A stretch of DNA of 64,000 bases, taken from Ophelia neglecta (lineage: Eukaryota). Below, one piece after another: positions 2,164 to 58,811 of this stretch (its first letter is position 1; every line of letters begins with the position of its first letter). The translations under genes and the position numbers were made by a program. The stretch covers positions 97,092,001-97,156,000 of the forward strand of contig OZ260663.1 in the NCBI GenBank assembly GCA_965285935.1. Reading direction: 5' to 3'. A model generated the notes under the pieces. The model was not told the origin of the DNA and made no database searches. It saw only the letters and a program-made list of their open reading frames with translations.

Positions 2164-5100
2164 ATGGCGGCTTTGATACATTTGTCTGTGTTTATGGTTA
2201 CAATTCTGACTATGGGGCGCAGCATTTCAGGTAATGGAGTACCACAATGTAAATAAAAAAGCATTTTATTATCATTTTTCACAGAGCTGTATTGTCGAAT
2301 ATGGATCGAATGGGGCTTTTATACATTTCTATATCCGACCATGATAAAAGCGTTCCAAGGAACCCCCTTTTTCTGAATCCACCCTGATCATGGCTGCTCT
2401 AAGACACCCAGTACTTACTTATCATGACTGTACTAAAACACCCTTCACCTTATTCCGACGTGATTACAGCTGTTCTAAGACTCCCCTTTTCTCACTAAGT
2501 GTCGTCTCAGCTCACTCAGTTTAATGACATTTTGTCAATGTAAATCAAATTGCGCAAATGTATTCAACTTAGAAGTACTTGGAAATACAAAAGCACAATT
2601 CACCCGACGATTGCCTGTGCCAACTTTATTATGAGCTTAGTGTTTACCTGTGCGTCTTATTGTCAATGACTTTGAATCCTGGAATGCGCCCATAGAACAT
2701 TATTACATTATTGTCAATGCTGCCTTAGCAATACAAACAGCATGAGTGACACAGTCAAGCTAAATATACAAGAAATGAAGGTTTGAAGATCACCGCTGCG
2801 TATAACCGCTGCGTATCAGAATATAAAGGTCTGAATAATGTATTTGTGTTAATGGATACAGTTTTGGTCATGTTTGGCGGCATTTTCAGTTATTGGATTA
2901 ACGCAAGTGACATAACTACACCTTAGCACGTCCTCCCGGAGGTATATAATCAAACACTGCCCTAAGGCTGCTATATATCCCAACATGGTTTACTACAGGA
3001 AATATTTTACAATTTGATTTCTCCTGTGTGTAAAATTCTAGCCTCTCTGTGAATAGGAATCTAAATAGTCCCCCGTGTTCACAGTCAATAAGAGTACCAA
3101 CTTTTAATAAAAGCCTTAACTCGAGAAGACGTGCTCCACACAACCACGCACTTGGGTCTGAATAGATAAGATGACATGTTTTCGACATATTGCCAGATGT
3201 CTTTGTATCGTGACTAAGCCCGATGAATGGTAAGTTTGCAATGTCAACAGACCTTTTATAAATCAAGCATTCTAAAATCTTATAGAATTTTACCAGAAAT
3301 TGTCCCCAGGGAAGAAGTGAGCAAAGAATTCTCGAAGCCACCCTTTCCATATATATACAGAAAATACAGTCACCCGACACCGTCGAGCATAAGGAAATAA
3401 CCTTCCATTTCCAGACATAATTTGTTTGACTTTCAGTTCAGCCTGAAGAAAATTTCTGGAGTTCTTTGGGAATAGGATAGATTAAGAGCATGAGGATTAA
3501 GTTGAACGAAAACAAAATGTTCTCACGATATATTTATGGAAGAGGCTCGTATTTTGTTCGGGGTAAATTGAGTGCAATTTCAATTTGTATCAAACTTAAA
3601 TTTTGCGATAAAAAACTACAACAAGGACATTTATGATAACATTGGAACAAAAATAATGTTCGAAATAAGTCTTCTAGACCCCCTAACCCCCCACCCCCAC
3701 CCCTTTCTCTTACACACACTTATCTAACGTTGCATACCTTATTCATCGCTTCCTGTGAATCCGATTCTAGACACGTGCCACGGACATGCATGCATAATAC
3801 AGGTTATTTGTTTAATTCTAGCTGCACGGCGTAGCACCGGATTAATAGAAAGTCTACACACTTATGTGAATAGATATCAAACAAACCAGCACGATAGACG
3901 CCGAGATAGCTATGGACGAGGAAGTTACGTCTGTATACCGACGTGTATAACACGACTCCTGATTTTAACGCTGTATTAAATGTTAAAGCACGGCAATATG
4001 GCGGTTGTGCTTCACATGGCAACATTTCTGGTGATAGTTTTGAGCGTTTTGTGCGGCATTTCAGGTATTACTTTACTACCAGTACGATTTCTGTGTCTTT
4101 ATTAAAAATGCACGTTTTTATCTTGAATAAAGTTCTCTAAAGTAACTTTAATGGTGCTCTAATACAGTTCTCTGTCTTTTTACTTGTTTTCCAAAGGTAC
4201 CTGCCGATACGGACTCCAAGTTACATGTGCATTCCAATGTCGGTGTACCATGGGTAATTGTCACTCCGACACAGGCGAGTGTCCATCTGGGGGAAATTGC
4301 ACACTGTGGAATCCTGGAGCTATACCATGGAATGGGCTGGGGTGTAGAATAGGTTAGTTTTATACCCCGCAGTCAAATTAAACTGCAAACTCTAAAAACG
4401 TATCAAGTAAAACGTTGGTTTTTATGCATATATATCGTTTTCATATATTTTTCATAGACAATATATCTATTTACATATCTATAGCAAAGTTGTTTGGTAG
4501 GTAACGTTGCGTTCAACAAACCATCAAGGCAATCCGGTATCAAAGATGGTAATGGTCCTGGCGCTGCAGTAGATGGAGAGGTGGGTGAGTCGTTGGGCGA
4601 TGGAAAGTGTTCTCATATAACACAGTCACAAGACAGTCTCTGGTGGATGGTGGACCTCGGCCAAATGCATATCGTGTACAATGTGATTATTTATGGGGAA
4701 AAGGCTAAAGGTGAGTGCAATAATAAACATATAATGAGTTGATTGAGTATCGTGTCGTAGATATTCTTTGTCCTTTTTTCTGTCTAGTCGGCTATATATT
4801 TAATGCGATGGTCTTTCTATTCACTGAAACATATCTAATAATTGTTTATATATTTAAATGAATAGAAAAGTTGGACAAGTACAACATTTTAGTAGGAAAC
4901 TCCACTGTAGCGCTCAGCAATTCTCACTGCGGGTCCAGCGACAGCGCAGACAATTCTCAGTCAGATTATACTAATGTGACATGTGACCAGGGAACGCCGG
5001 TCGTGGGTAACAAAGTGGTACTACAGTCAAATGAACTAAATGACATTATCGTCTGTGAGCTGGTTGTCATAGGGAGGACATTTGTAGGTATGACCGCCTA

Positions 5101-8100
5101 TATAACCCATATATTGATCCGACAAGAAGCACACAAATAAATACGAGACATAATTTTCCATCATACCTTGTAGTTTTCATTCAGATTGTGCCCTGTGTCC
5201 GGCGACCAGTACATGTGACGACTACCAAGGATGTAGTCAATGTCCCGAGAGATTTAGACTACCCGATTGTAAAGGTGGGCTCCAATAAAATAGTGCCGAG
5301 TTAATTATGAATAATGTCCCGTTATTAAGTAATGATACACACCAATAGCACTGAACGTTTGTTTCTCTTTGTACATTTAAGAATGTTCAGTAGGCTTGGT
5401 AGGAGAGAACTGCTGTAGCCCACACTGTAAAGATCAGGATTGTGTAAAGGAGACAGGAGTGTGCTCTAATGGGTGTAACTATACATTGACCGGTGGATTG
5501 GAGACAAGTGTGATGAGCAATTACGTGAGTATAAAATACTTGAAATAGAAAAATATATATATATGTATTCGTTTATTGCCATGAAAATTGCCAAACATTT
5601 GTTTAATTTTCTTTCATTCGTTCAAAGCTGTGATGCAGTTTGGACCCAGTGACACTGTAGACAGAACTCCGGTTGAGGTAACAACACAATCTGTGACGTG
5701 GCGCTGGAAAGAGTTTAGAACCGTTTCACCGCAGGCTGCTTTTTTTGTGGGGTTTCAAATTGTCTACCGTGAGGTTGGCTACGCAGCCTGGACTATAGGA
5801 GCAGACGTTCCATACAAAGACACTGAATGGCAGCAGGGAACTGTCAGCCAGCTACATCCAGACACAGAGTACGAGTTTGACCTGCAGGCGTACAGGAAAA
5901 AAGATGGTACGGTACATATTGGACCCTCAACTTACGTAAAGTCAGGATTATCTAATGAAGGACCTCTCCGTACTCGCACTTTAGGTAAAATAAGTGTTAT
6001 GATGACCTATCCCAAGGGCGATTTTGTTTTACTTTTTGATTTTGATATTGCAATCTATAATAATTTTACTAAATGTCTGTCTGATAATTTAGATATGTCA
6101 TATCTCAATTCTTTAACAGGATTACACAAAAATTATCCATTTATCGATTAATGTAAACTTATTATTATGTCATGATAGTTTTCATATAATTTATTTTAAT
6201 TTATTGCTGCCCTAGGAGGAACCACACCTGTACTACCTTCAACACAACCAAAGCCTGTATCCTCGACCCAAACAACCAATGTAAAGACCAACCAGACCGC
6301 CCCAACAACCACACCTGTACTACCAACAACACAACACCAGTCTGAATCATCGACTCACCTAAACAATGTACAGCCCAACCAGACTGACCCAACAACCACA
6401 CCTGTACTACCAACAACACAACCACAGCCTGTATCCTCGACCGAACCAACCAATGTACAGACCAACCAGACTGACCCAACAACCACACCTGTACTACCAA
6501 CAACACAACCCCAGTCTGAATCATCGACCCAATCAAACAATGTAAAGACCAACCAGACTGACCCAACAACCACACCTGTACTACCAACAACACAACCACA
6601 GCCTGTATCCTCGACCCAACCAACCAATGTACAGACCAACCAGACTGACCCAACAACCACACCTGTACTACCAACAACACAGCCACCGCCTGTATCCTCA
6701 ACCCAACCAACCAATGCAAATACCAACCAGACTGACCCAATAACCACACCTGTACTGCCAACAACACAATCCCCGCCTGTTTACTCGCCCCAACCCACCA
6801 ATCTAACGACCAACCAATCTGACCTAACATCCACACCTGTACTACCAACAACACTAAACCAGTCTGAATCATCGACTCACCTAAACAATGTACAGACCAA
6901 CCAGACTGACCCAACAACCACACATGTACTACCAACAACACAACCACAGCCTGTACCATTGACACTTAAAACCAGCGTACAGACCTTGGAGCCAAACACA
7001 CAAACTACTTCTAGGACTGTCATAGTGATATCATCGTCGCCTACTGTATCTTCGTTCACCGCATTTGACAACAATACGTCCAAGAAAAGTTCCGTGTCTG
7101 AGGTCTTAACAATGCCACTGCCCATAGGACTCGTAGCCGGGGTAACTGTGGGAATCCTGCTTCTTCTTTTAATATTAGGAGGCATTATCTTCTTCTTTGT
7201 GAAGTAAGTCTACACGCTCCATAGAAAACATACCGCATTGATAAATCATACGTCTTCGAATATTAATAGTCACCAAATATTTACATTTATAAATTAATAT
7301 ATAATCATACATTTAGAAGAAAAAAAGCCCCTAAAGATGGAGTTGTAGATGAGGAAATAACATTTCCTAAGGAAGAACTGCAGCCAAATACTGCAGGTAT
7401 TGTTTTAACAATAATTTTGTATAAAGATGTTGCTTTATCGTTCAGTACAGCAGGGCGTCACTGATTAATCCTGACTAAGCGATAGCTTTATTCAGGCAGT
7501 TGTTGAAAACATTGTAAAAACCAACAACACCAACACTTCATTACTGATGCACTGAATTTGTCTACAGAGCCCAATTATTATTATACCACGGCACTGGAAG
7601 AAGGCAATACACATGTTGCCAGCGATGATGAAAATGAGGAAATGGATGCATTGAACTCTGGGACGGGACTAGCGGAAGCAGTCAATGGCAACGCAGGCGC
7701 ATCGGCGGTTTCGAGAAGTAGCATCATACGACTAGAAAAATTGAGATCTTATATTGAGAACCTGAATGCTGATGACCGATACAAAGACGAATTCAACGTA
7801 CATACCATGGCATTTATCATCATTGTCTATATAACATCAGGCCAATTTCGCATACATTTGTTATTGTAGATTGAAAAAAAGTCGTCTTATGCAAAAATTC
7901 TCATTATTTTATAGAACATCCCCAGCCACGAGATGTTGGAATGTGTCGCCGCTAGTATGCCGAAAAACAATTTAAGAAACAGATTTAAGAACATAAAAGC
8001 CTGTACGTTTAAGCTTTATATGTTTATCTTTGAGTACGAATTTATTTATACAGCTTTAAGCACCACCTCTATAATAAGACCACATGTCAGTTCAGACCAC

Positions 8101-11100
8101 TAATATGAAGACCGTGCTGTATACTTTCAATGAGAGAGCAACCTGTCTAAACAGACCACCTCCGAAATCAAACCAGCATTTTCCAGTCCCTGGGGTGGTC
8201 TTAATTCACAGGTTTCACTGCATATTGTTCTAATGTGGATAATTTATTGTTTCCTTCTGTCACCGTCAGATGATTCCACACGTGTTGTTCTGGAACTGGA
8301 CCCCAATGACTCTGATTCGGATTATATTAATGCCAACTACATAACAGTGAGTAAAAAATGTATCAAAATTGAGCAAGTATATCGTGTTGTTGACTTCATG
8401 TTCATTGCAGTAATTGCTATTTTAAAGTAATTGCTTATATTCAAATTAAATTAATTTTCTTCCACAGTGACACGTTTTATTCTTCATTGTGTTTATTTTA
8501 ATATACTACATGTTATAAGTGTGTACTTAGGTGTCTATTTGAAAATATACTTTAATTGAACTTAATTTGTTGCATTCCTCATTTCAATCAAGGGGTACAA
8601 GGACTTGAAGAAAGCCTATGTAGCTACACAAGGTAGGGCGATTTCTTGTTTGTCTTTATCAGATAGTTTAAGCGCTGACTATCGTTTGCGGCAAGGTCCT
8701 CTATGTTTATGTATTGTTTTTACGGTTCTAATGTGCTTTACCTTTTCAGTCTTATATTTTTTGAAAATAATAGTTGTCAGTTTGTCTCTGCTAGCTCCTA
8801 ATAAACACACAACAGCAGAATTTTGGACCATGATATGGCAACTTAAATCAAACAGAATCATTATGCTTACAAGATTATTTGAAAACTGCGAGGTAAATAT
8901 GTGTTTGGTTCCTTTCTATTAGAAAATTATGACGTGAAGCGTGATATCCTACATGAGCTTCAAGGAAAGTCATTATTATTCCGCTCATCTAATTTTATAT
9001 TGCAGAAAAAAAGCGTGCAATACTGGTCCGATAAAGTTGGATATATGAAAAAGTTTGGCCAATTCAAAATTGAGACAACGAAGAGGGATACATTTACCGA
9101 CTATGCTTTTAGTATACTGCGTGTAACCAAGGCGGTAGGCTTTATATTTTTCGTTTCAGTTTCATAATATTAAATATTTATTGATGCTGAACCATCTGCT
9201 ATAAGAACGACATGTTTGATACAATAACGCCTAAGTCCATTTGCACTTTAAGGGCGAGTCTCGCACAGTGCGCCATCTCCAGTATCTAAGTTGGCCCGAC
9301 AAGTCGGCGCCGAGAGACGCCGACCCACTGCTCGCCTTCAGGAGGAAGGTCAGATCTTTAGACAATGTCAGCCATGGTCCTATGATTGTGCACTGCAGGT
9401 ATGTACAAATATTTAGACTATGTCTGTAATGTATACATTAATGGTGGAATAATTGAAACGTCGCCTTTTACCTGCAATGTTCAAGTGTTTCATTATGTAC
9501 TGTATTCTTCAATACTATCCACATGATTCCCTAACCAGTGCCGGTATAGGCCGAACCGGGACGTTTATTGCCCTGGACTTCCTGCTGCAGCAGGCAAATG
9601 CTGAATCTCAAATCGACGTCGTAACCCTTGTAAACCACATGAGAACAGAACGAATGAAAATGATTCAAACCTTGGTACATGCACAGATAAAACACATCTT
9701 GTATTTGTAATAATTTCATTAGAGTAGGATACATCCTGAAAGCTGTTTAATCAAGGAAAGAATGTTTTACATTCGTATTAAATAATGAAGTTATAACAGT
9801 TTAACATCCAAATTTGACAGGTATTTTGTATTATTGTTTCCAGGACCAGTATAAATTTGTGTACACGGCCGTTTTGGAGGCTGTAACCATCGGGGATACA
9901 GCTATACCATACTATGAACTGCAAAAACGATTGACTGCACTAACCTCCGTGGACAAAACAGGATTATACCCACTGAAGACTCAGTTTTCTGTAATAGCCA
10001 ATTTTGCCTTTAGCAATAATTGCTTAGTTTTGTTCATCATTTATCCATCGTATTGAGAGTTTTGATAATCAAATATTAAAATTAACATTACATAGATATT
10101 GAAGGAATTGAAATACACTGAACCAGGGGAAGCGAGTGACGGACAAAAACAGATAAATGTGGGCAAGAACAGAACTTTGAAAATTATTCCTGGTAAGAAA
10201 GCGTCCCATTAATGCAACAATAGGCTTAGTTTCATTTTATACTTTAGAGGTTATCGAGGAAAACTGATTAAATTGGTGAATTCGGTGAGAATTGTTATCA
10301 TTAGAACATTCTTGTTGACATCAAATAATGATAAACATCCTTTTGGCAAGAATTTTTTTGATTATAAGTTTGGCAATTACTGAATATGGCCTAAGTTGCA
10401 ACAGAGTTTAAGCCAAAATGGCCTAAATACCAACCTTCAAGATGAAAACTGTTTAAGTGACATGGTTGGCCAGTATCATCATTGGCTAAGCTACATCAAT
10501 ATTGAAACATGGCAAAAGGGACACTGAAATATAGCCTAATTAACAAATTAAAAATTGGGAAGTGACATGGTAGATAAACTCTTTATATATTGAATAATCA
10601 CTGCTTTCATACCAATTTCATTAAGGCTATATTTAGGAAGTTAGCTACAATAAGTATGTCATTTTGGTATACACAAATCCCAAGCGACCAAAGGGTCATT
10701 TGGGTCTTCTTTTATCGTTCATGCGTATTCACGTGTTTTTTTTATATACGAACATGCTGGATAATTTCAATAAGAATTGCCTCCTTCTTGTTTAGTTTAT
10801 CCATTTGCTCGTATATTTATGATAATGACCTTATGTTTACAGATGACAGTATGAGACCCAGACTGGTGACTTCGGGAGCTCATGACAACACTTACATCAA
10901 CGCTGTGTTTGTCGACGTTAGCAGATTTACTTTTCTTCATTTATAAAATATATTTGAACCCCATAAGCAGAACCATTGTTTAACAATTATTTTGTGTTAA
11001 TGATACATTTACACTATTTGACTATATTGACTAAATACAGGTATACGACAATATATATAAATGCAGGTGTTAATATGTAAAGCTTGCTATTTTATTACAG

Positions 11101-13196
11101 AATTTCCGAAATGAACGTGGTATTATCGCTACCCAGATGCCTCTGTCAAATACAGTCGATGATTTCTGGAGATTGGTCTACCAGCACAGACGTACTACTA
11201 TCGTCATGCTCAATCCGCTTGATAAAAATGTCAAGGTAGAATCAAAGTGTTCCTGCTTGTTTTCAAGTCTTCGACCTTCCCTAAAAAATTTAGATTTTAA
11301 TTTACAAGGTCATAAATGAAACACTTCAGAATTGCACGGCATATTGGCCAGATGACAAAGACCTGAAACAAAGACACGCAGATATGGAAGTCAAGTTCGT
11401 ATCCTCGGATCTTTGTGGACCTATTCGGACACGAGTTTTCCAAGTTGGCAAAATGGAAAAGGTACAAATACTTGGAATAATCAATTTCCTAAAAAAAAAT
11501 GTTGGTTTATATTCCTAGTTAAATGTCAGTGTTCGATACGCCCAACCGCAGCTTAATTTTCTTCTTCTCCCCAGAGAAATGAAGAAATACTGACTGTCAA
11601 ACAATTCCAGTTTTTGGATTGGCCAACTGGCGACGAGATTCCTAACGGCGGTTCTCTACTCGATCTTATTGCAAACGTATCCGCCTCGGAGAAAGATGAA
11701 TGTTCAATTCTTGTTCATTGCATGTACGTATTATTGCATATAAACTGGTGGTGAACAAGGTTTTATTCATATCGTAGTCAACAGACATGGTCACCTATCT
11801 TGTGTGCTTTTCATTATTTTAGGACCAACATTCATACAGGTTGAGAAAATAGCGGAAGTTAGTTAGTTCCACGTGGTGTTCCATTAAAATGTGTTAGTAC
11901 TATCTAGCTAAATTGTTTTAGCCGAATAGTTTTAACTGGCTTAAATACAGGCGGGCTAACAGGCTCAATTAAGCTAGACAATTAAAATTGAGCATACTGT
12001 AGTAATTCAAAACTTGGTTCTGGCAAGGTCAATAGGAGAACACGAAACTAATGCACAGGCTTTTTGCGAATGGGTGTCAAACATTTTCTTAAAGCACAAT
12101 CTAGCACTGGTGGGGGAGAATGGGGAATTGTTTGGAGAGAGAATGCATCGTTTTTATTAACAATCAAAATAACTACCAATTCAGATTTTTCGGCATACTG
12201 AATTAATTTTCTTCTCATTTGTGCAGGACGTTATAACTTTCTCTGGTACTTCTTATTGTTACAATGTTGAGGTCAATATAATTCTTATTTCTTTGGTCAT
12301 GTACAAACTTGGCGCGCGCCAACTTAATTTAATTTCCATTAAGCCTGTGACCATGTCATTCGTCTATGTGAGAGTTGAGCCCGTGTCGAGAGTCTTTTTC
12401 TTTATTACTAATAAGTTTGAATGACATATTTGCTATTGAGTAAGCGGTATTTATATTTAACAAGCGCGTAGTTACAATGAAGTGGCAGGTATGGGGTAGG
12501 TGCGGTTTTGCCTTGTTTTGCCTTGTTTGAATAAGTAAAGCGATCTGTCAGTTTCCTGACAAGTATGTCCAATACTTTCGGTGCCAATTCACGATATTTA
12601 CCCAATCAGAGTTCAAAGCAGCTCCTCGTTGCTTGTGAATACTAATGAAGGAAAAATGATTTTAAATGTGTTTTGTTGTATTGAAAATCAGGTCTTGGTA
12701 CATGTACGAGCACTAGGGAGATAATTCATCAAAGATGTATTAAATGCTACGTAGTATAGCTGATACATTATTCATCTCTCTATACACCAACGTGTATATT
12801 ACCTACAAGAACTTCGTAATGATGTTTCAGGGATGGTGCTTCACGGTCGGGATTATTTTGTGCTTCGTGCTACATGTTAGATAAGTTGAAGTCAGACAAG
12901 GAAGTGGATGTCTTCCAGGCTGTCAGATGTGTCTCCAGAGGGCGCCCTCAGTTTATTAACTCAATGGTAGGTATATGTGTAATGCACCTGCAGCCAGTTG
13001 GTGCAACTATTTTAGCCAATGTGTATTAGTTATTGTTGATTTTCACTTTTGGAAAATTATTATTGGTAGCACGGAACACAATGTTTAAATCAAATTTTGT
13101 TTAGTTTCCATTTATGTTTATTAGAAACAGTATCGATTTCTACTCGACGTGGCCAAGGAATATATATCATCACATGACGCCTTCGACAATAATTGA
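2164..13196 (+). CDS. RPTP-A: receptor-type tyrosine phosphatase, SP-EGF-F-type lectin-EGF-EGF-FN3-mucin stalk-TM-PTP D1-PTP D2 (25 exons; frameshift in exon 6)
   Basis: Manual GT-AG exons: 2164-2230 (signal peptide MAALIHLSVFMVTILTMGRSIS), 4197-4352, 4501-4710, 4866-5087, 5185-5274, 5382-5524, 5628-5984, 6216-7203, 7317-7396, 7568-7797, 7915-8002, 8270-8346, 8593-8632, 8795-8892, 9006-9134, 9253-9398, 9539-9674, 9844-9990, 10096-10192, 10843-10916, 11101-11235, 11330-11461, 11575-11723, 12831-12966, 13125-13196 (TGA). D1 motifs: RNRF, DYINANYI, FWTMIWQ, WPD, HCSAGIGRTG, IQT..QY. D2 motif: HCMDGASRSG. Exon phases are compatible except exon 6 (143 nt). Confidence 0.9.
4197..4352 (+). CDS. RPTP-A exon 2: Cys-rich EGF/laminin-EGF-like module
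   Basis: GTCRYGLQVTCAFQCRCTMGNCHSDTGECPSGGNCTLWNPGAIPWNGLGCRI; phase 1-1; homologous to 62241-62384. Confidence 0.8.
   Translation, partial: VPADTDSKLHVHSNVGVPWVIVTPTQASVHLGEIAHCGILELYHGMGWGVE
4501..5087 (+). CDS. RPTP-A exons 3-4: F-type lectin (fucolectin/FTP) domain
   Basis: NVAFNKPSRQS...AVDG...CSH...WWMVDLG...YNILVGNS...C...GNKVVL...CELVVIG matches the FTP fold pattern. Confidence 0.88.
5628..5984 (+). CDS. RPTP-A exon 7: fibronectin type III domain
   Basis: VTTQSVTWRW...GFQIVYRE...VSQLHPDTEYEFDLQAY is an FN3 signature. Confidence 0.85.
6221..6960 (+). repeat. Coding 87-bp tandem repeat (~8.5 copies) encoding a 29-aa Pro/Thr/Gln mucin-like stalk
   Basis: Unit ~TTPVLPTTQPQPVSSTQPTNVQTNQTDPT; in frame with the TM segment (LPIGLVAGVTVGILLLLLILGGIIFFFV) in exon 6216-7203. 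Confidence 0.92.
8051..8220. mobile_element. Tc1/mariner-like MITE in RPTP-A intron 11 (second copy ~28473-28642)
   Basis: TA|CAG... start and GGTGGTCTTAATTCACAGGTTTCACTG end, with internal AGACCAC(C) repeats complementary to GGTGGTCT; the left TIR is degenerate. Confidence 0.55.
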
Positions 13197-14024
13197 ACTG
13201 GAACAATCCTGGTTTATTCCAAAGATTCTTGACTACATGTGCATCCTGTAAGAAAATGTAATAAGTTAAACATTTGCTTGTAACATAGAAAAGTGTTTAA
13301 AATAACACAAGATGATCTTAGGAGTGTAGTTTAACATGCGATACAGACGAAAGATTGTCCACATTCTATTATCTGCACTTATTCCAATTTCTATAGTACC
13401 CAAGTAAGGAATGTTTATACAAATATATATATTGAGAGTTTATGCAAAATGTTTTCCAGTCAACTAAGCTTTGAGTGAGGTTTGTCAGGACTGTAATTAT
13501 ACAAATCGAGAATGTTATTTGTGTTTGTATTGATATTACAACATGTTATGACGTAAGACGAATTGGTGTTTCTATGTCGACGTCTACTTTTATATACTTA
13601 ATACTGTTATAACTTATATATATTATATTTACTCAATCCGAAACGAACGCCATGGTGGACTCAGTATTTGCATGTGGTGGTAATTCAACACAATTTGTTG
13701 ATATATTAAACAAGTTTAATTTACATGATTACTCAGATATCAGACACCTCAGAATGCAGCGCTCTATGACAATAAAAAAGTAATTATTTGCAGGAGTAAA
13801 ATGGATTTCGTTATAAGTGTGAATCTGTCGGTCAGGTCGATGTGTGTTGTAAATGACAACTATTTGAAATGATTATTACAAATACTGACACATTCACCAT
13901 GAGCATTATATAATTATGACCTTTATAAAATCCATGCTTTTGTCAGTATGCTGAGCTTCAGATAAGCTGATTTGTAAACAGATATGATACATGAAATGCG
14001 TATATGTTTTAATTTCGACGTCCA

Positions 14025-14105
14025 GGGGCGGGTCACTAATATATTAGTAGCTCTCCACTGTCACGTGACGTTCTTTAGCCGGTCGCCACGGTCCCGTGAC
14101 GTCAC
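14025..14105. promoter_or_regulatory. Promoter-like motif cluster: GC box, palindromic E-box, CRE (copy at 34533-34613)
   Basis: GGGGCGGG 14025-14032, GTCACGTGAC 14060-14069 and GTGACGTCAC 14096-14105 in a locally CpG-rich patch; function unverified. Confidence 0.3.
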
Positions 14106-15339
14106 AAGGCGTCTGTTTTCATTAGCCATTCATGTTACTACAGACCGAATACATATAGAGACAGGGAATACTACTTAAATACACTTGATAGTCAATAGGC
14201 AGGGCTCGGGCGTTTATTATGTCGGGCTGATAATCATCATTAGTACAAAAGTCCCGACAAATCTTGTTAATGGCACATTCACCTCTGTCGTACTATGATT
14301 TACATCATTTTTATAGGCATTTTAATGAATATAAGGTTTACTATGATTCGATGTCATCCACCAACGATGCCGGAAAGTCAGCTACATTATCATAACATGA
14401 TATTTATTTGTGTTGAAAGCTACTATTGACGGACAATATGCTTAAAAACTACTTTCGATCGACAATGTTGAATCATTGATATCATTCATGATATTCATAT
14501 TTAGCGAATCACCTGAGACAGCACCTGGGAGATTACGTGTGAAATGACACCTGGTGTTACATATGCCATACCACCTCGGCTGACACCTCAAGCCATGGGG
14601 CGTCTGAAATGTCTCATTAAATACACAGAGCACACATAACATGCCATTGATAAATTAAACCGTATTTAAAATGTCCTATATATCATTAAGATCTCCCTGG
14701 GTTATACAACACAAGCAAGAAGCACGAAATCTCCTGGCCTGATTGCTGCTGTGGCCTCGAGATCATCTCTATATGCAAGTCATGCAAGGTAGAAGCTGAA
14801 GAAGGTAGGCACCCCAGCATTTTTAAGCTTCTCACTGATAAATTCGAATATTTAGCACAATTCACTCAAAAACCTACAAAAAACGTTAAAACAAACAAAA
14901 TATGACATATAGAATACATGCCACGGGATATATCAAACTTTAAAGAGTAAAACCGCTTGTTTTACATATATAAGCCATAGGTTATAAGAGAGCGCCCAAA
15001 TACAAACGATTTAAACAAATGATCAAATTACGCTTAACAAACGAGTATAATCTAATATCAAACTGCTCTGAGTTGTATAAGTTGTCGAAAACAAATATTT
15101 GCGAGGACATAAATATCATCGAGCTTGTGACTTCCGGGTCGCGTGTTGGATGTGCCGCGCTTATTTGCAAACGGATGACTGACAATCTGTTAACTACAAT
15201 AGTGTATGAATAGCGTCACGGCAGAAGAATACCCGGATGACTTAACGGCAGACACTCGGAGTACCAATGTATCTTTCAAAAAGAAGGGGCATGTGGTCAG
15301 TAGTTGTACAGTAAGACATTATGTATCCTGGGCAATCAG

Positions 15340-41559: not shown

Positions 41560-44500
41560 ATGGCCTCCGTACTTCACTGCCTGTTGTTTGGTTTGATTGT
41601 TTGTGGGACATTTACTGATGGTCTCGGTAAGAATTCTCTAATATATTCTAATTTGTACGACATTTATTAGTATTATGTATTTATGTCAGATCATTCGTTG
41701 TAGCTGTAACTGTAGCTATCTATATCTTTAAAGGGCCTAACTTAATTATATACTTAACTACTTACCTTTGGTACTGCTCGTTGTACGCTGCACGATTACG
41801 TACTACTTGCTAATAGTTTATATGTAGGCACAATTTACGAGGTCGCTAATTTCGGCTACACCTACGTTTTATGACATGGATTATCCCATGATGCATTGTA
41901 TATCCGGTGGCCATTTGTCAGACTATGCTGTCAAGAAATTAGCAAGCCTAAAGAATGCAAATTAACTTCGGGAAAGAGGTTCGTTACTTACCTTTATATG
42001 TCCAATATTGTTCCGAAATTACGTAAGAACAAACTGAAATACCTTTCATGTGTTGTATACAATTTATTTCCTTGTATTTCAGTTTTTACGGTCACCATCA
42101 ATAAAGAAACTTCAATTAATTTGTGAATCAGTTTGTGACTTGTTAAAAGACGCCCGAAGGCACTTACAGTAAAAACTCTTGTGACTCCGCAATTGTGAAC
42201 CTACCAGCATGAGTCTAGATAGGCCTAGAGCTAGAACAATGACCGATAAAGGGCGCCAGTACAGAGACTCCCTTTTGGAAAGGAAGATCAAGGACGCCCT
42301 CAAGTCTTTTAGGAAACTTTCGAATACAAGCAGCTATAGCCGACAATGAGGTCTCAATTCCAAGCCTACAAGAAGCCAGAGTCAGCCTAAACAGTTGCAT
42401 CGACACACTGGAAGAAACAATTGAAGAAAAGGAAAGGATAGCAGGATTTAAAGATCCAAAGGACAGTGTAAATGACATCGCCATAGAAGATGAGTATCAA
42501 AGAATCTTATTCATGATAAATGAGAAAATTAAAGAACTGAGGAAAGAAACAAATCCAGACTCAATGTCAAGTAGTAAAGGTTCAGCAGAATCAGTCAGAA
42601 GCACTTCAAGAAGTTCGAGTCATTCTTCCCAAAGGTCAAAGAGAGGAGCAATTAAAGTGGAAATGGCGATGAAATTAGCCCAAGTAGACACAGAATTGAA
42701 GTACCTGGAAATTGAAGCACAAAGATCTACAGATGTACAAAAACTACAGAAGCAAAAGGAGTTAGACATTATCAAGGCCAGATTAGATGCTCTAAGGGAA
42801 GTCGAAAACGAAGAATTAATTCGCGAACCCATGGACTCGTTGTCAAGTCAAAGTCCGAAATTGGATCACCTTGACAAGTATTTAACTTCCCAATTAAATT
42901 ACGTCACTCAACCAATTGTACCTGTGACTAACGTAAATATGGTATTGACTAGCCAGCCGACGACATTTGAACACTCTGCATCCACAGGACCAGTAACAGT
43001 TACTGCCGGTACCTCTGCACCTGCCATGACCACAACTTCTGTTTATATGCAAAATCCTATGTCTGATAATATTGTACATACTATGCCAAAAAATGTTTCG
43101 GGTCATGATAATGTTGAGTCTCATACTATGCCAATTGTATCTTCCGTGAATACTGTGAATGCTGTTTCAAATGTCAATACAAATGAATCAGATGTGAATT
43201 ATATGAACAATCAATCACAAAGGTTTGTCTCAACTGTTCAAATATCAGATACAACCATGGTAAAAGGTACATATAGCCCTGCAGTTCCCATGAATTCAGG
43301 TAATGATGTGTGGAATCAACCAACCCCATTGATTCCTGGAAGCAATTTGAATCCTATTGCTCCTGTATATGTCCCTAATGCCACACAACCAATGTATTTC
43401 ATGAATTCACTGCCTTTGCCAGAACCAGCAGTATTCAAGGGTGAACATTTAGAGTATCTAGGTTGGATAAAATCATTTGAGACTATCATAGAAGGTCAAA
43501 CCAAGGTTCCCTCACAGAGACTGTATTACTTGGGGAAATATACAGATAAAGACCCCAAGGAATGCATTAGAGGTTTTTTATACCTAGAAACAGAGGAGGC
43601 CTACAATGATGCAAAAAATCTATTAAAGGAAAGATATGGAAACCCATTTATAGTAGCCAACGCTTACAGGAAACGGTTGAAGGATTGGCCAAGAATAGCC
43701 CCAAATGATGGGAATAGCCTCTGACGATTTTCCGATTTTCTCCAACATTGTCAAAGTGCGATGGCCAGCATCAAGTATTTGTCAGTTCTCAACGATCCTG
43801 AAGAAAATAAATTGATTTTGAACAAACTTCCGAGGTACATTGTAGATAGATAAGGCAGGCAGGTTGATACATGCATCAACATACCTGGCGATCAGTACCC
43901 TTCATTCGAAACCTTCTGTCTGTTTATAGCTAAGGAGGCTAGGATAGCATGTAACCCAGTGACACATGCTAGTACGACGTCAACTGCAGTAAATGATAAA
44001 GACAATGTAACTAGAAACTATAAATGTCATCGAAGACAACCAAGTGTGTTTGTAACAGGCTCAAATGAAGTGGATAAAGACGACAAAACTACAGCTAGCT
44101 GGGATAGGACAAGACAATTAACGCCATGCATATTGTGTAAAAACAAGCACGATTTAGAAGGCTGTCCAGACTTTAAGAAATTGTCCTTAACGGAAGGAAA
44201 GGAAATGGTTAAGAAACACTTTCTGTGTTTCGGTTGCTTAAGGTGGGGACATACCTGGAGAGCTTGCCGCAATAAAAGGACTTGTAAAACTTGTAAAGGA
44301 AAACATCCAACTAGTCTCCACGACGAAACACTCATGAAGCCTAACACAGCAGCCCAGAAAACTGAAATTGTCAAACCCAAGGAGCTCAGTGAAATTAAAG
44401 CGACGATTCCCTCACCAACAGGCATAACTTCTAACTGTGTTGACTTGAACAAAGATACTAGTATTTGTTCTCACTCGCTTATTATGCCTGTTTGGGTGTC

Positions 44501-50500: not shown

Positions 50501-53500
50501 AATCTGAATGACCGTTTACTAGTTTACACTCTTAGGAACACATTGGCACAACTGTCACACTTGTAAATAATGTCAGTGGTTCATGGCAACCTTTGAAAAT
50601 AATACCTATATTTTCAAACAAAAAGTGCTACAAAGTCACAATTTTCAATTTTTTTTCCAGAAATTTCCACTCATAGGCCTTATGGTACCTAGTAGGCACT
50701 ATATATTATGAAAAATTTGTTGTATATATTGTAATCGTCGACAAAAATCAATTATAACACTTTACATCAACTAGGGGTTCGGTATACCCTTAAAGGGCCT
50801 AACTTAATTATATACTTAACTACTTACCTTTGGTACTGCTCGTTGTACGCTGCACGATTACGTACTACTTGCTAATAGTTTATATGTAGGCACAATTTAC
50901 GAGGTCGCTAATTTCGGCTACACCTACGTTTTATGACATGGATTATCCCATGATGCATTGTATATCCGGTGGCCATTGGTCAGACTATGCTGTCAAGAAA
51001 TTAGCAAGCCTAAAGAATGCAAATTAACTTCGGGAAAGAGGTTCGTTACTTACCTTTATATGTCCAATATTGTTCCGAAATTACGTAAGAACAAACTGAA
51101 ATACCTTTCATGTGTTGTAAACAATTTATTTCCTTGTATTTCAATTTTTACGGTCACCATCAATAAAGAAACTTCAATTAATTTGTGAATCAGTTTGTGA
51201 CTTGTTAAAAGACGCCCGAAGGCACTTACAGTAGCATCATGATTTATTTTACACAACTTCATTAATTAGTTCGGTATCACATTGATATATTCCTTACACT
51301 AGTGACTACTATCCTAGCATACAGTAGTGCTTTGACATTTATAACTGATTTGCCATCATAGTTTTGATATTTAATTCTTCAGTAAAGCACCATTAACACT
51401 TTCAGCAAGGAGGTGGTGTCATTGTTATGTTGGCTGACATCGTACATCTTTTTTGACCTGACTTATAAGGCAATTTTACTGAAAATATTTCGGTGTCTCT
51501 TTTTATGCATTTTTGCTTTAAAATAATTGAATATTAAATAAAGGATGTATCTGCCTTCCAAACACTTCCAGACAATATCGGTAAAGGGAAACCAGCGATA
51601 CAAAGTGGCAGGTACAGCGAGGAAGCTTCATGGGCTGTCGATGGGGATACCTCCGATCGGATATGCTCCTTCCCATCGTCTTCAAGCGGCCAAGTATGGT
51701 GGATGGCGGATCTTGGCCATCATTATCGTATCGCTAGTGTATTGGTGTATAGCTTGAAAGGAGGTAACAATTCTTCATTTAATGCGAGTTAAATACATTT
51801 AAATAAAGTGAAGGCAACCAATAGTAAAAATGTATCGCATTACCTCGAAAGAATATAATGCTGAATCATGTTTCATCCAAAATCATCTTCAGTTATATAA
51901 GGGAACAATAGAAACACTCTAGTAATATAATAAATATGTTAAATTCATAGAGCGACTAAATAATTACAACGTCTTGGTTGGAAACTCCACTGATGCGATC
52001 AGTAATGCTGAATGCCAGTCTAGCGAAATGGCCAACAACTCTCACCCTAACTTCAGCGAAGTGACATGTGCAAAAGCGATGATCGGAAGTAAGGTGGTGT
52101 TAAAGCGCCATGACGAGTCTGACACCATTATCTGTGAGGTAGAGGTATACGGGAACAGATCAATAGGTAACTGTAACACCAAGTTGATTGTCCAATTTTC
52201 GTGTGACATTTACGATTATTCCACCATTTAAATATTTCTGCTCAGAAATGTATCAAGAATCTAACACTAAGTATATACGTTTCACCGTTGCTCTGAAAGC
52301 CCGGTCGAGAAATATTTCAATGGGTGACTGGTATTTTAAACCTGGGTTAACAATAAATCTCTAACGACTGGCCACCAGTGGAAGATTGTTTCGCAACTTT
52401 TCCTCTGCAATGGCAATTGTTTTCAGAACCAATGATCAAAGAGGAAACACAAAAATATATCTTTGTATTAAAAAACGTTAAACCCAACATAGTTTATCAG
52501 ATTGGAACAGTCATGAAGGTTTTGATATAAATGTTTGTGATATAAAAAGTTGTCTGGCCTGATTTTTTCTTCATTCTTCATTTTGTGACTACTCATCATT
52601 GTAATTTCTTCACAGCAGGAAAGTGAAACACGTTGACCATGAAACCATGAGCTCTTTAGGTTTGATTTGTCAATGAATAAATTGAGCTCATCAAGCGACT
52701 ATTTTATTGCTGTTAAAAATTATACTTTATTCAATTTGATATAGCTAAAACTACCCGTTCAAAGGCGGTTAACATATGCCACACATATTGATAAGTTTTT
52801 TAAAGAGTAATATATCAAAATATGCCCGATTGAAATTTCACGAAAAGCAGGTGCGATACGAAATATTATGGTTTACATTACAGCCCATGTAAAAACCGGT
52901 GTTATAAAAGCTATATGAAGCAATTGGTCATTTAATGGTCGACATAATAAAAATACGTCTCATTATAAAATTAAAATTTCTGTTATTGGACTACACTCAA
53001 CACTAATGAGGAGCATATACCGTGTTTTCGAATAATATCGTTTCTTTCCATTCAATGCTGATTTTTCTTTATTTACAGCCGAGGAAAACGAAAAGAAAGG
53101 ACCTAATCCGAAGACGATAGCAATAATAGGGTGTTCTCTGTTGTTGATACTTGTCATTGTGGCAGTGGAAATGTTCATTTCTAGGTCCAAGTAAGTAAGA
53201 CATTTGTGCAAAAAGAAATAACTGATCTTATTTGGCCAAGGAGGTAATGTGCCCAGATCTTTATACCTTAACTGAAGATGGTAAAACCTTTTTGGTAGTA
53301 AATTCAATGATTAAAATTATTGCATTAAGCTACTTATTAATGTAATTAAAAATGACGACGATAGTAAATTTCAATATTACTAGAAAAAAAGAAAGAATGC
53401 CCAAAAGAAACAGTTCGATCAAACAGTGCCCCAACATAAGTGAGTTTAAGATTATTAGTTTTTTCTCATCATCGATTTACATAACGGTACAACCAGAACA

Positions 53501-56500
53501 CGTATACCTAACAAGTCTTAAGCACACCTTCTTTAGAGAGCAAACTCTTGTTGCATCAAGACAGAAGTTTAAATTGCACGGGGTTTATTCACTTAGTTGA
53601 GAATGAATTGCATTCTGAGCCACTTGAAGAAGGTACTTCAATCATGGATGTTAGCAACGAGAGAGCGAGCGTTACAGGGCTCACACGGGTCAACAGTTTC
53701 AAGCCAATCATCAACAGTACAAGGCAAGCTGGAGCTACTAACGCCAATCGCAGATCTACCATTAAGATCGAGGATTTGAAATCATACATTGAAGAGCTGG
53801 ATATCAATGATCAATTCCAAGTGGAATTTAGCGTGAGTTTCCATTAGTTTTATTCTCTCTCTGTCCTAAATCTGGTTTATATCAAGAATAATAATATTTT
53901 TAACTTATTATTATTATCATAATTACAGAACATTAAAGGACATGTATAAACAGACGCATAATTACATAAGACACCACAGGAAAAAACATTAAACGAATCA
54001 AATTAGCGGGTACTATCCGAAAGTATTGGCCAGCTGCTTTGGCTATTCCAGTGTATGAGCATGTCATTGGGGAGATGTGACTTTACAGCAAGTGTTGTTT
54101 CTTGTGTGTTTTCTATTGTTTGATAATCCATATATTATGTTGCAGGGGATTCCTTCTATTGAAATGTCGGATTCTATCGCAGCTAACCAACCTTTCAACA
54201 AGCGAAAGAACAGGTTCATGAACGTCAAAGCCTGTAGGTTTCTGTGGTGTTTGGTTTACTAAGATACATAATATATACCCTCTACTATGATCTTATTTCA
54301 TTATACTCACTTGCTATTGTATGGATTGAATCATTGTTAGTTTGTTGTTATAAGCCGATTTCGTCTTTTAAGATGATTCCACGAGGGTTATGCTAGAGGT
54401 AGAAAATGTGTCTCTTGATTCTGACTACATCAATGCCAACTATATCACTGTGAGTGTGGACTTAATTAAATAATGTTGATCAATTTTTAGCAGTTAAGCA
54501 TGTAAGTGTCTGCCGCGCTCATAAACCAGTATCTAAATAATGATCTTTTTACACGTTTGTGTTAATTTTCCTCCCGTAGGGGTATAAGAAGCAGCCGAAT
54601 TTCTATGTTGCTACTCAAGGTACAGCCTTTGCATGATTAATAAGTTTATGCCTAAAGTACAATGAAACGATTAAGTCTTAATGGAATGTTGTGTTTGGTT
54701 TATTATTCGTTACCTCATGAAACAAAGGTCGAAACCTGATTAAGAATTCATTGTCGCTCAGCTCCAATTCCATACACCGCCGATGACTTTTGGAAGATGA
54801 TATGGCAGATCAAGGCGAATAGAATAATCATGCTAACACGGACGATGGAAAACGGCAGGGTAATAATAAGCCATTGATTACTTGTAATCAGTGTGAGGTA
54901 ATTGGTGCAGTTGATATATCTTATACATAACAATGATATTTCTTGCTATAAACGGACACGAAATTGTATCATTTCAGAAAAAGAGTCACCAGTACTGGTC
55001 TGAAAAAGTTGGCGAAGAAGTCACTTTTGGGGGGTTCCGTATCAGAACCATGAAGAGAAATAAATTCACTGATTACGCATATTGCTTGTTGAATATCACC
55101 AATGGGGTATGTAACGGTAAAAGAAAAGGTATAAATTAAGGGAAATCTTTCAAGCTTGTGGATTTCAATCTGTGGGTATGAAGTGATATATTTGGAATTG
55201 CCGCATTTTAGATACTCAGCAAAGGCAAATCACATTATTTTTAATATTTTGGCGCTCAAAGGTCCGTTCATTGGATATATCTATTTACCATTTATACGTA
55301 TTAATTGTTCAGGATGAATCTAGGACAGTGCGACATCTCCAATTCATAAGTTGGCCTGATAAGTCGGTCCCGAAACACGCTTACCCACTAGTCGCCTTCC
55401 GGAGGAAGGTCAGGTCGTTAGACAATGTCAGCAGAGGTCCTATGGTAATACACTGCAGGTAGAGTTAATATTATCATTAATCGCCATTTCATTTTAAACT
55501 GGTTTTTTATTACATGTATAAACATCCACTCTTTAAAACATAAACGTTTAAGTATGTTTGATTCTAATGGTATTCAATATCGATGCTGTTTAATTTTCAA
55601 ACACAACATAATTACACCAAGCTAGAAAATGAAATGTGCACATTTTGAATGATCGTTTTCTATCAGTGCTGGTATTGGAAGAAGTGGTGCCTTTATCGCC
55701 CTCGATTATTTGCTACAGCAGGCAAAGGCGGAGTGTCAAGTTGACGTGGTTAACCTCGTCAACAGAATGAGAACTGAGAGGATAAATATGATTCAAACAC
55801 TGGTTCAAATATTTCTATTTACGTTGTTATTTAAAACGAGATGCGATACCCGGCTGAAATTAAATCAAGAATGTCCCATTAAAAATATCAGCAAGTTCAT
55901 TTTGTTATTATTTGTAGGAGCAGTACAAGTTTGTTTATTTGGCATTGTTAGAGGCCGTTACTGTCGGCGATACAGCCATCCCAACTACTGAACTACATCA
56001 GCGCATGACTGCACTTACTACTGAGGACGAAATGGGGTGTTGTCCTCTAAATGATCAATTCAATGTACTCTTCTATTTTCACATTTCTTTCGTCGCTGTT
56101 TTAGTTGCATTCATTTTTTAGTTTATTGACCACAGGACTATTTGTGTCTGGCGAGCCTTCATTGTGGTTGTAGAACTCATTCTTAGCTTAATATAGTTGA
56201 TAATACCATTAAATTACTTATTGAGTACAGACATTGCAAGGACTGAGACCGGTAGTTTCTCCTGGAAACATCGAAGGAGGAAACGACCAACATCTTGACA
56301 AGAACAGGACTATTGACATCCTTCCCGGTATATATTGAAACTAGATCAACTATATAAATTGTGCTTAAAATTATTCCAATTTACTCGGTTTGTCCACACT
56401 TATTCCGGTATGAAAGAAAAGTGTTTAATTTTAGGGCAATACGCGTGTATTTGTTAACCAAATGAATTGTGTTTAAGATATCCTGAGTTGGTTTAAACAA

Positions 56501-58811
56501 GCTTTTTTATGAAATTTTACCCGGAGCGAGGTACGAACCATGAATCTTTCGACTTGGATTTGTGGCATCAATTGACCAGCAGTTCTTTAGAGACGGACGC
56601 GCTATTCTTTCGGCCACGGGAACAACCCTAACATACAGGATAGTTTCCGTACGGATAATAACACACAGGGCTGTTTGCGTGGCTCATTAGATAGTCCTCG
56701 AAGTCTAATTTCCAGAAAAACTATATAAATAGGAAAATGTTGAATACACCAACTCAGAACTTCTTAAAACTCAAAAAATCTTTTGTTGTTTGTATGTCAG
56801 TATGTCTGGCATTTTCCACACGGTTGGTTTTTGTGTGTTATTATCAGGGAAGTTTGAATAATCTTTGTATGTTCATATTAACAATGTTTTTATGGCTATT
56901 CAAACCGGTAGCCATGGAGGTTCAAGTACTGTATAATTAACTTTTCTTATTTTGTCTTAGATGACAGAATGAGACCCATTTTGATGCCATCGAAAGAAAA
57001 TGAAAACACCTACATAAACGCCGTATACGTCGATGTACGAATTGAGCAAAGTCTGAAAAACAGGAATTCAATTTAGAATATATATTCGTATTTATCAATT
57101 AGATATTAATATCTTAACAGAATGAACTTGATCGTTGTATATTTGTATTGTAATACTGTTAATACGAATATTTCATTGGCAGAGTTATGAAAATGAACGT
57201 GGCATAATTGTCACCCAGATGCCACTTAAAAACACCGTGGAGGATTTCTGGCGGCTGGTTTACCAAAATCGACGTTCTACTGTCGTCATGCTTAATCATC
57301 TGGATAGATATGACGAGGTAGGTTATGTCAGGGAAAATGAATCATAGATATGACGAGGTAGGTTGTATCATAGGCACAGATCATATATATGACGAGGTAG
57401 ATTATGTCATCGACACAAATCATAGCTATGGCGAGGAACGTGGTGTTATCGGACATAAGTCATTTATATGTCGAGGTGTGTTATGTCATCGGACACTCAT
57501 CATAGATATTGCGAGGTAGGTTATGTCATGGACACAAATCATAGACATGACGAGATAGGTTATGTCATCGGACATAAATCATAGATATGACGAGGTAGCT
57601 TAAATCATCGGACACAATTTCCGTAAAGTTTGATTTATTATTCTGCATATAATTTACTGGGAAAATATTTAATATTATGTTTACTTGTTTACTATTTTTC
57701 AGCAGTGTACAGTGTATTGGCCGTTTGATGAGGAACCCAAACAAAGCCATGGAGACCTTGAAATCAAGTTTATGTCCTCAACCACAAACGGCCCACTTCT
57801 GACTAGAGACTTCCAAATCACCAATACAAATCCCGGAGGGGTCAACCCAACTAAGGTAACAGACGATATTTACAGCTATTTCATTGAATAAAGCATGTTG
57901 CGAGACTTATTTCATCTATCTTTCAGGGAGCTGAGGAGCCACTGATGGTCAAACAAATCCAGTTGTTAGATTGGTCCAGTTCCGATGATCTTCCTAAAGT
58001 AGAGTCACTGCTTGATCTGATTGAAAACGTGGAGAGATCTGCAAAAGAACAGGATACTAATTTTCTTCTGATGCATTGCATGTATGTCTTATCATTAAGC
58101 AAAAATAAATTTATAAATTGTCTGATGTTTTAGATATTTGTGTCGATGAAGGCGATCTTGAAATTAGTAAAATATAAAATGATTAACGCGCGTCTTATAG
58201 TGTAGATTATGTCTTGAATATACAACATTCTTTGCACATTAATAAGTTTTGTATCTCGAATTTGGCTGCTACAGGGACGGTGCGGCCCGTTCAGGTCTCG
58301 TCTGTGCTGCCATCTACATGATAAAGAAAATGAGAGCAGAAGAGGAAGTGGACGTCTTCTTATCTGTTAGATGTGTCTTCAACAGTAGGCCGCAGTTCGT
58401 TAACACTGTGGTAAGTTTTCATTCTGTAACTACGCGTTTCGTAGAAAATAGCCCAGCAAATCATATCATTCAAACTCGTTGAAACTGTAACATCTGTCAA
58501 TTATTGGACATCTCTGACCAACAACTAGGGTTAAACGATGTAATTAGTTCAGCTGGGCTCGAATACATGAGCGATTCCAAATATTGGATTAGTTTGAGAG
58601 TCCGTGTTGACAAACTACTGCCGCCTCTGCCAGGCAACCGATTACCTAGATAGTTTGATTAGCTATCTTAGTAGCATGATGTAAACACATATTTGATAGA
58701 CAAAGAAACCCACCTTATATAACACGTTTATCTTCGTAGAAGCAGTACCAATTCCTCCATAATGTGGCAAAACAACACCTTTACGCAAATGGAGTTAGTG
58801 TACACATTTGA
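41560..58811 (+). CDS. RPTP-B: receptor-type tyrosine phosphatase, SP-F-type lectin-TM-PTP D1-PTP D2 (21 exons, open frame)
   Basis: Exons: 41560-41626 (MASVLHCLLFGLIVCGTFTDGL), 51572-51763, 51951-52166, 53079-53190 (TM), 53384-53439, 53597-53832, 54146-54233, 54373-54449, 54580-54619, 54762-54859, 54978-55106, 55313-55458, 55667-55802, 55918-56064, 56231-56327, 56961-57034, 57183-57317, 57703-57855, 57927-58081, 58275-58410, 58740-58811 (TGA). D1: KNRF, WPD, HCSAGIGRSG. D2: HCMDGAARSG. D1 exon sizes equal those of RPTP-A. Confidence 0.9.
41705..42168 (+). repeat. 5' LTR (464 bp)
   Basis: Matches 48966-48992 + 50794-51230 with about 3 substitutions; AATAAA at 42100-42105. Confidence 0.96.
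42209..48552 (+). pseudogene. BEL/Pao gag-pol polyprotein, disrupted by stops and frameshifts
   Basis: Three Cys/His knuckles (CILCKNKHDLEGC, CFGCLRWGHTWRAC, CKTCKGKHPTSLH), protease ALLDEQS, RT YVDD, RNase H HHFSDAS, integrase H-H-C-C / SDQGSNF / GGVWER. Stops at ~43722, ~43851 and ~48319; frameshifts near 42320, 47190 and 47657. Confidence 0.95.
48993..50789. mobile_element. Non-autonomous TIR DNA transposon with TTAA TSD, Kolobok-like (GG...CC termini)
   Basis: TIR GGGTATACCGAACCCCTA (18 bp perfect, ~30 bp imperfect); TTAA at 48989-48992 and 50790-50793; the empty site is visible in the 5' LTR; no transposase ORF. Confidence 0.9.
50344..50533. repeat. Nested fold-back (24-bp perfect, ~35-bp imperfect inverted repeat)
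   Basis: CTAGTAAACGGTCATTCAGATTTT ... AAAATCTGAATGACCGTTTACTAG. Confidence 0.8.
51572..52166 (+). CDS. RPTP-B exons 2-3: F-type lectin domain
   Basis: DNIGKGKPAIQSG...WAVDG...ICSF...WWMADLG...ERLNNYNVLVGNS...ICEVEVYG; the first exon is absent from the ORF track in this frame. Confidence 0.88.
56518..56625 (-). mobile_element. Degenerate tRNA-SINE head remnant
   Basis: Minus strand reads CCCGTGGCCGAAAG (A-box-like) ... GGTTCGTACCTCG (B-box-like). Confidence 0.35.
57303..57617 (+). repeat. 39-40-bp minisatellite (~8 copies) that includes an exon/intron donor junction
   Basis: Unit ~ATCATAGATATGACGAG|GTAGGTTATGTCATCGGACACAA; the first copy supplies the true donor at 57317|57318. Confidence 0.9.

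Follow-up and report, generated by a model that had tools for sequence, protein, structure and literature searches.

The closest described systems to the genes reported here are Biomphalaria receptor protein-tyrosine phosphatases (PTPs) with MEGF and galactose-binding domains, namely SudRes1 (PMC12297450) and LG5R subgroup 1C (PMC13712769). Receptors of this architecture lie in snail parasite-resistance loci, where the sensing of fucose or galactose has been assumed from the name of the domain; both papers presume a ligand that contains fucose or galactose, and the parts of them covered here give no analysis of the triad that defines canonical fucose-binding F-type lectins. F-type lectin domains (FTLDs) that deviate from this triad are in print, for example in Drosophila CG9095 (PMC5712786) and among the FTLD-like domains of nematodes (PMC5297725). 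Statements taken from these four papers refer throughout to the parts of them that were covered.

In the account below residues are numbered on eel agglutinin (AAA) via alignment, which agrees with the numbering in PMC5712786. The triad is written as His52 and Arg79-x-Asp81-x4-Arg/Lys86, and the published spacing of 26 residues between His52 and Arg79 (PMC5297725) is that of the motif given in an initial annotation of this DNA.

Organisation of the locus

The window, which is the whole 64,000-nt stretch of DNA analysed, is animal genomic DNA with a GC content of 35-44% (2-kb bins), and contains three paralogous genes, A, B and C, all on the + strand, with three FTLD genes within 60 kb. They are a predicted tandem family of single-pass receptor PTPs with the FTLD at the outer end. 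All exon borders were inferred from sequence alone, the signal peptides and transmembrane (TM) helices of A and B were read by eye, and both of these gene models stop short of the final coding exon.

Gene A has, in order, a signal peptide, a Cys-rich exon, the FTLD, two EGF-like exons, a fibronectin type III (FN3) domain, a mucin-like stalk, a TM helix and the phosphatase domains D1 and D2, in a model of 1328 residues that is open provided one 143-nt exon is skipped. The signal-peptide-like exon 1 (3998..4064) has an ATG and hydrophobic stretch with a GT donor in phase 1, and is followed by a Cys-rich exon (4197..4352) that is EGF-like in its Cys pattern and gave no match in a Pfam search; residues 1-54 of gene A resemble the N-terminal end of a receptor PTP from Gigantopelta (E 3e-4). 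Downstream of the FTLD lie a second Cys-rich exon (5185..5274; open, AG/GT, phase 1-1), where the EGF label is likewise a reading of the Cys pattern, and the 143-nt EGF-like exon (5382..5524), which contains a frame switch near 5477-5484. Taken whole, the 143-nt exon leads to a stop at residue 298 and a predicted secreted form without TM helix; the frame is preserved by skipping it, or by any of seven other donors (e.g. after 5474), and the frame switch may reflect an allelic difference, a fault in the assembly or a switch between soluble and membrane forms. The remainder consists of the FN3 exon (5628..5984; Pfam fn3, E 1.6e-5), the Thr/Pro-rich mucin-like stalk with the TM helix (6216..7203; 8.5 copies of an 87-nt unit) and the tandem D1 and D2 (7915..12966; Pfam Y_phosphatase), identified from their motifs within the open model.

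Gene B runs from a signal-peptide-like exon 1 (41560..41626) through the FTLD to a short stalk and TM helix (53079..53190), whose TM segment has a Glu close to the inner side, and to tandem D1 and D2 (54146..58410), again recognised from their motifs; the model is open over 830 aa and 20 of 20 exons have GT-AG introns. No counterpart of the EGF and FN3 exons of gene A was found between 52167 and 53078, and the FTLD is the sole folded extracellular domain in the model. Gene C begins with a signal-peptide-like exon 1 (60789..60858) and a Cys-rich exon (62241..62384) that has a weak GAG acceptor and shares 19 of 46 residues with that of gene A, continues with the FTLD and then runs off the end of the window. 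A Cys-rich exon preceding the FTLD is present in A and C and absent from B.

The surroundings are rich in repeats. An 8.3-kb block with the intracellular half of gene A (7994-16306) is repeated at 28416-36813 with 97-99.5% identity, the second copy being without ectodomain exons, and is either a recent duplication or an assembly artefact. Between the duplicated blocks (16304-28406) a 3.49-kb unit is repeated in tandem ~3.5 times at 99.7% identity, and the unit itself consists of 89- and 92-nt satellites. There is also a partial phosphatase paralog, the fourth, which comprises the end of D1 and D2; it is seen at 15837-16252, where it is cut by the repeat array, and at 36345-38120; its upstream exons were not found within the window. 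Intron 1 of gene B contains a BEL/Pao LTR retroelement at about 41710-51233 (Pfam Peptidase_A17, DUF1759, RVT_1 and rve), with LTR segments that are 98.9% identical over 451 nt, a pol split across several frames and a 3' LTR apparently interrupted by ~1.8 kb (48996-50782). Elsewhere in gene B an intronic 40-nt tandem repeat (57304-57617) contains several copies of the end of the exon together with its donor, and possibly gives alternative donors. On general inspection of the window no antistasin gene was noticed.

F-type lectin domains and their splicing

The positions that the initial annotation gave for the three lectin domains were borne out, each being a two-exon FTLD: 4501..4710 and 4866..5087 in A, 51572..51763 and 51951..52166 in B, and about 62995..63177 and 63327..63545 in C. 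The first exons match Pfam PF22633/PF00754 with E values of 7e-6 to 5e-4, scoring below the curated cut-offs because each exon is half a domain, and in the PDB exon 1 of FTLD-A matches striped bass FBP32 (E 3e-9), SP2159 and AAA (1k12, E 0.0055). Against an FTLD profile the spliced domains of A, B and C reach 101, 90 and 64 bits, and all three have the marks of the fold family, namely Asp64 and four Cys at the positions of Cys50-Cys146 and Cys108-Cys124, whose disulfides are predicted. By sequence, they are real F-type lectin domains. The profile of the second exon found no FTLD among PDB sequences (one unrelated match, E 1.2), a word-index protein search with the exon-2 alignment gave no matches from 510 candidates, which is a weak negative, and an Atlas search with exon 2 of A gave unnamed clusters (0.95-0.96) and a PF00754 cluster (0.89; 18% of members) that is a lead only.

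The short motifs quoted previously are all present (CSH, CSF and CYV; AVDG, AVDG and NIDG; WWxxDLG; the three loop strings), as is the intron inside the variable loop of all three domains, which is in phase 1 and measures 155, 187 and 149 nt in A, B and C. It is one ancestral intron, the differences in loop length adjoin it, and it is probably old rather than peculiar to this cluster; four short single-stretch matches (P0020, P0034, P0041 and P0043) in which similarity starts at about the loop-intron point are suggestive only. In FBP32, by contrast, an intron is found near Glu123-Cys124, outside the fucose loop (PMC5712786). The homologous FTLD acceptor of gene C has AT instead of AG (62993-62994), the sole open-frame acceptor, 63004, costs the domain its first three residues, and the loop length of FTLD-C depends on the donor used, there being two plausible ones at a distance of 6 nt.

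The idea that a canonical exon or splice form lies hidden was considered and rejected: RxD..R/K is restored by none of 19 open in-frame donor/acceptor joins (4 in A, 5 in B and 10 in C), and the canonical fucose loop is absent from all six frames of the window. All three FTLDs have in common an N-glycosylation sequon on the bottom face, directly after a conserved LVG, at approximately 4887-4901 in A, 51972-51986 in B and 63351-63365 in C.

The fucose triad and the calcium site

The full triad motif is found in none of the three domains. Arg79, Asp81 and Cys82-Cys83 are missing from every one of them, the position of Arg79 being taken by Glu in A (4698-4700), Leu in B (51754-51756) and Val in C, and the fucose loop is shorter by 2, 3 and 5 residues respectively. 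It had been proposed that all three domains have lost the triad, each differently. The first part of this stands in so far as no triad is complete, but A retains two of the three residues, His52 (4614-4616) and a Lys at position 86 (4868-4870), which the motif allows; B retains one, Arg86 (51953-51955), with Phe at position 52 (51670-51672); and C retains none, having Val52 (63093-63095) and Gly86, with one Arg a single residue earlier. The second part does not hold, as the losses of Arg79, Asp81 and Cys82-Cys83 are common to all three. One ancestral loss explains the shared missing residues and the short loops; three independent losses were rejected because the same residues are missing throughout, and a single loss in common, after which the paralogs diverged, is the better reading. 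The calcium site, said to be kept, is so only in part: Asp38 (4572-4574 in A) is present in all three domains and Glu147 in A and B, but Ser49 in none (K, I, M). In C Glu147 is replaced by His (63515-63517), a position that is Glu in 108 of 110 background domains, and only B strictly has the published h2DGx form; Ser49 can be replaced at the calcium site by water (PMC5712786).

The background set derives from a whole-library search with the exon-2 profile, which gave 48 proteins from which 159 near-full domains, 153 of them distinct, were cut; with pairs above 70% identity removed it consists of 110 FTLDs from 40 proteins and leans to multi-domain proteins. Within it 78 domains are without the full triad and 32 have it complete, Arg79 is absent in 37, no triad residue is left in 34, and His is lost with Arg79 kept in 38. 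Triad loss is common and degenerate FTLDs are already known; what stands out here is which residue went, namely Arg79. The order of loss is rarer than triad loss as such: the pattern of A (His and a basic residue at 86, no Arg79) occurs in none of the 110 domains and that of B in two. No close relative of the three FTLDs is present among the 110, the best identities being 32%, 30% and 26%. A literature search of titles and abstract openings, with subscription papers outside its scope, found no report of triad loss in FTLD-phosphatase receptors, and no match for the receptor name "PTPRLec".

Variability of the sugar face

With a canonical proxy as guide, the alignment columns were sorted into three classes, namely core, top (sugar-face) loops and bottom loops, and the bounds of the third and fifth loops were set by us; the comparison rests on three sequences whose loop alignments contain gaps, and gap-free columns were counted. 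Columns in which A, B and C each have a different residue number 12 of 61 in the core, 13 of 34 in the bottom loops and 22 of 31 in the top loops; on this one test the pocket is, as anticipated, more variable than other surface (top versus bottom, Fisher p=0.013). The description of a conserved scaffold is upheld by the invariance of the four Cys, Asp38, Trp61 and Asp64 and by a core pN of 0.27-0.31 against a pS of 0.72-0.77 in the three pairs; the FTLD fold is under purifying selection. Bottom-loop pN (0.37-0.48) is also below pS, whereas the top loops give pN/pS values of 0.64/0.73, 0.64/0.59 and 0.57/0.81, where pN is not clearly above pS, and thus no signal of positive selection in pairwise comparison of three sequences. 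Positive selection from pairwise dN/dS was rejected, dS being saturated at 1.6-2.7.

The identity of the top loops is 6-16%, and neutral simulation gives 6-17% at 1.0-2.7 substitutions per site. The top face behaves as unconstrained or diversifying, which three saturated sequences cannot separate. The proposal of paralog-specific pockets is plausible on these sequences, in that the top loops are more variable than the bottom ones, but their identity equals the neutral expectation; with synonymous sites near saturation, relaxed constraint fits equally well. When background pairs of like core identity are compared, the top-minus-bottom gap is as low as here in 0-1% of them overall and in 1-8% of those in which both members are without Arg79. 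Top-loop identity, on the other hand, is ordinary for background pairs both without Arg79, being as low in 22-83% of them. The top loops are net acidic, with K+R counts of 5, 4 and 3 against D+E counts of 9, 8 and 5 (8 against 6 in the canonical proxy), and those of A and C have no aromatic residue.

Phosphatase domains and their relatives

The catalytic motifs of D1 are intact in A (WPD, HCSAGIGRTG and Q-loop) and in B (WPD, HCSAGIGRSG and Q-loop); D2 of A has HCMDGASRSG, and the pTyr-recognition Tyr is Phe in both genes. Both classify as tandem receptor PTPs, with PTP epsilon and alpha as the closest PDB matches, and are identical to each other at 190 of 287 positions in D1, 135 of 240 in D2 and 55 of 135 in the FTLD. 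The closest named matches are mollusc proteins (full-length BLAST, 120 listed of 276 phosphatase matches), to which the D1 domains are 38-47% identical. In a D1 tree of 26 rows, from which three partial rows and most bird rows were left out, A and B group together on a separate long branch (100/100) whose placement is weakly fixed; a word-index search with the WPD-exon alignment gave no matches from 19 candidates, again a weak negative.

Orthology to a conserved gastropod receptor (P0082/P0051) was rejected, as it has no FTLD and falls in a separate clade; the Biomphalaria match P0051 is a different, conserved receptor. On a reading of their sequences, the gastropod receptor phosphatases P0082, P0051, P0153 and P0160 have a similar N-terminal EGF-like module and then a kringle-like stretch, which sits where gene A has its FTLD and hints at domain swapping at that slot.

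Possible function of the receptors

The reading that we favour, to which we would give a probability of about one half, is that the FTLDs are recognition heads with paralog-specific, probably non-monosaccharide ligands, and that they arose after one shared loss of fucose binding. Arg79, Asp81 and Cys82-Cys83 would have been lost once, before the gene was duplicated, and that loss would have ended canonical fucose (and galactose-type) binding. The freed, outward-facing loops may then have changed fast, giving each paralog a different surface, and these surfaces would act as recognition heads for which protein or other non-canonical ligands are likelier than a monosaccharide. Binding of a ligand would cluster or re-orient the receptor and so alter the activity of D1. 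Ligand-driven clustering or re-orientation changes activity in other receptor phosphatases. For a part in immunity or in the detection of non-self, the only pointer is the analogy with the SudRes1/LG5R clusters of snails.

Since the N- and C-termini of FTLDs both leave the barrel at its bottom (PMC5712786), the variable face is directed outward. In gene B, an intact 830-aa gene with no other folded ectodomain, the FTLD alone is a candidate for ligand binding. The C2 domain of factor V shares this fold, has no triad and binds phospholipid (PMC5712786). The earlier suggestion of non-fucose glycans as ligands is weakened, since galactose-binding relatives such as the sialidase and galactose-oxidase modules keep the equivalents of His52 and Arg79 (PMC5712786) and Arg79 is missing in all three domains. 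Against the favoured reading, packing on neighbouring domains or the sequon may conserve the bottom loops and give the same contrast between faces, and both C, in its acceptor, and A, in its frame switch, show signs of decay. We consider unlikely the stronger form of recognition by variable heads, in which the cluster is a family of variable receptors whose lectin fold has become a general scaffold for recognition: one early loss of Arg79 freed five outward loops that now diversify under selection for protein ligands, with the splice junction in the fourth loop tuning its length and an active phosphatase signalling; were it true, and were the snail receptors to share this state, their assumed sensing of fucose would be wrong.

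It is possible, though we doubt it, that the pocket is vestigial and the domain now a structural spacer or a binder through another face, its top loops drifting under relaxed constraint. The neutral-like top-loop identity with pN close to pS, the background FTLDs that keep no triad residue, and the bottom loops and sequon common to all three domains would all fit this, but a spacer accords less well with gene B, which has no other folded ectodomain, with a fold preserved over about two synonymous substitutions per site, or with the retention in A of His52 and a basic residue at 86. That retention of two triad positions is in turn what would favour continued sugar binding, in which A, and possibly B, have a weak affinity for fucose, galactose or some other glycan through remodelled loops and the avidity of clustering. 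Deviations from the triad may mean changed specificity as well as loss (PMC5712786), and snail receptors of like architecture are presumed to bind glycans containing fucose or galactose (PMC13712769). We regard sugar binding as improbable all the same, as Arg79 to Glu in A is a reversal of charge, galactose-binding relatives retain His52 and Arg79 (PMC5712786), one substitution may abolish binding (PMC5297725) and the top loops of A and C offer no aromatic residue.

It would seem very improbable that the genes are simply turning into pseudogenes in a repeat-rich, duplicating locus. The missing acceptor AG and Glu147 of C, the frame-switched exon of A, the LTR element in intron 1 of B and the partial phosphatase copies nearby could all be taken as decay; however B is fully open, A is open with one exon skipped or shortened and C is open via acceptor 63004, and decay would not spare the core, whose pN falls well short of pS in each of the three pairs.

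Comparison with known systems

SudRes1 and LG5R-1C resemble the present genes: they are clusters of paralogs for single-pass receptors that combine EGF-like repeats with a galactose-binding or fucolectin-like domain and two phosphatase domains. All of these elements are found in gene A, B is without EGF repeats, and the likeness is one of architecture only. Variable ectodomains, domain loss and duplications, which are described for the snail receptors (PMC12297450, PMC13712769), are further points of likeness, and gene A differs in its additional FN3 domain and mucin stalk. In their mode of action A, B and C would resemble orphan receptor phosphatases whose head is variable.

Among the 120 phosphatase matches listed of 276, FTLDs are carried by four bivalve proteins, those of Ostrea edulis (LOC125669227), Saccostrea cucullata (LOC134243463), Saccostrea echinata and Dreissena polymorpha (LOC127862660). 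Like A and B they join an FTLD ectodomain to phosphatase domains, and Cys82-Cys83 is absent from seven of their seven FTLDs; unlike A and B they keep Arg79 in all seven and, as read from the alignment, His, Arg and Arg in five. Their D1 domains are 41-44% identical to those of A and B, and within the present comparison they are not orthologues of these genes. Absence of Cys82-Cys83 is thus widespread in FTLD phosphatase receptors, whilst loss of Arg79 marks this cluster among the matches listed. CG9095 and the nematode FTLD-like domains also keep the fold with basic residues replaced, but in the parts of those papers covered no attachment to a phosphatase is stated and they are not described as a diverging set of paralogs (PMC5712786, PMC5297725).

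With canonical F-type lectins (AAA, 1k12; FBP32, 3cqo) the domains share a fold detectable in sequence, the Cys50-Cys146 and Cys108-Cys124 pairs, Asp38 and Asp64, and differ in having lost Arg79, Asp81, Cys82-Cys83 and Ser49 and in belonging to membrane receptors rather than soluble lectins. They would accordingly be placed in the FTLD fold family and outside the fucose-binding F-type lectins as defined by their motif. For this family the assumption of fucose or galactose sensing fails at the level of sequence, and the residues to check in other receptors are now named; gene B, with the FTLD as its only folded ectodomain, offers a clean test case for the ligand of a fucose-blind FTLD. Absent a ligand or a signal of selection A, B and C remain a common kind of lectin-domain degeneration. 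Their ligand is probably not fucose. Receptors of this type and degenerate FTLDs were both known before, and what is added here is an FTLD without Arg79 on phosphatase receptors.
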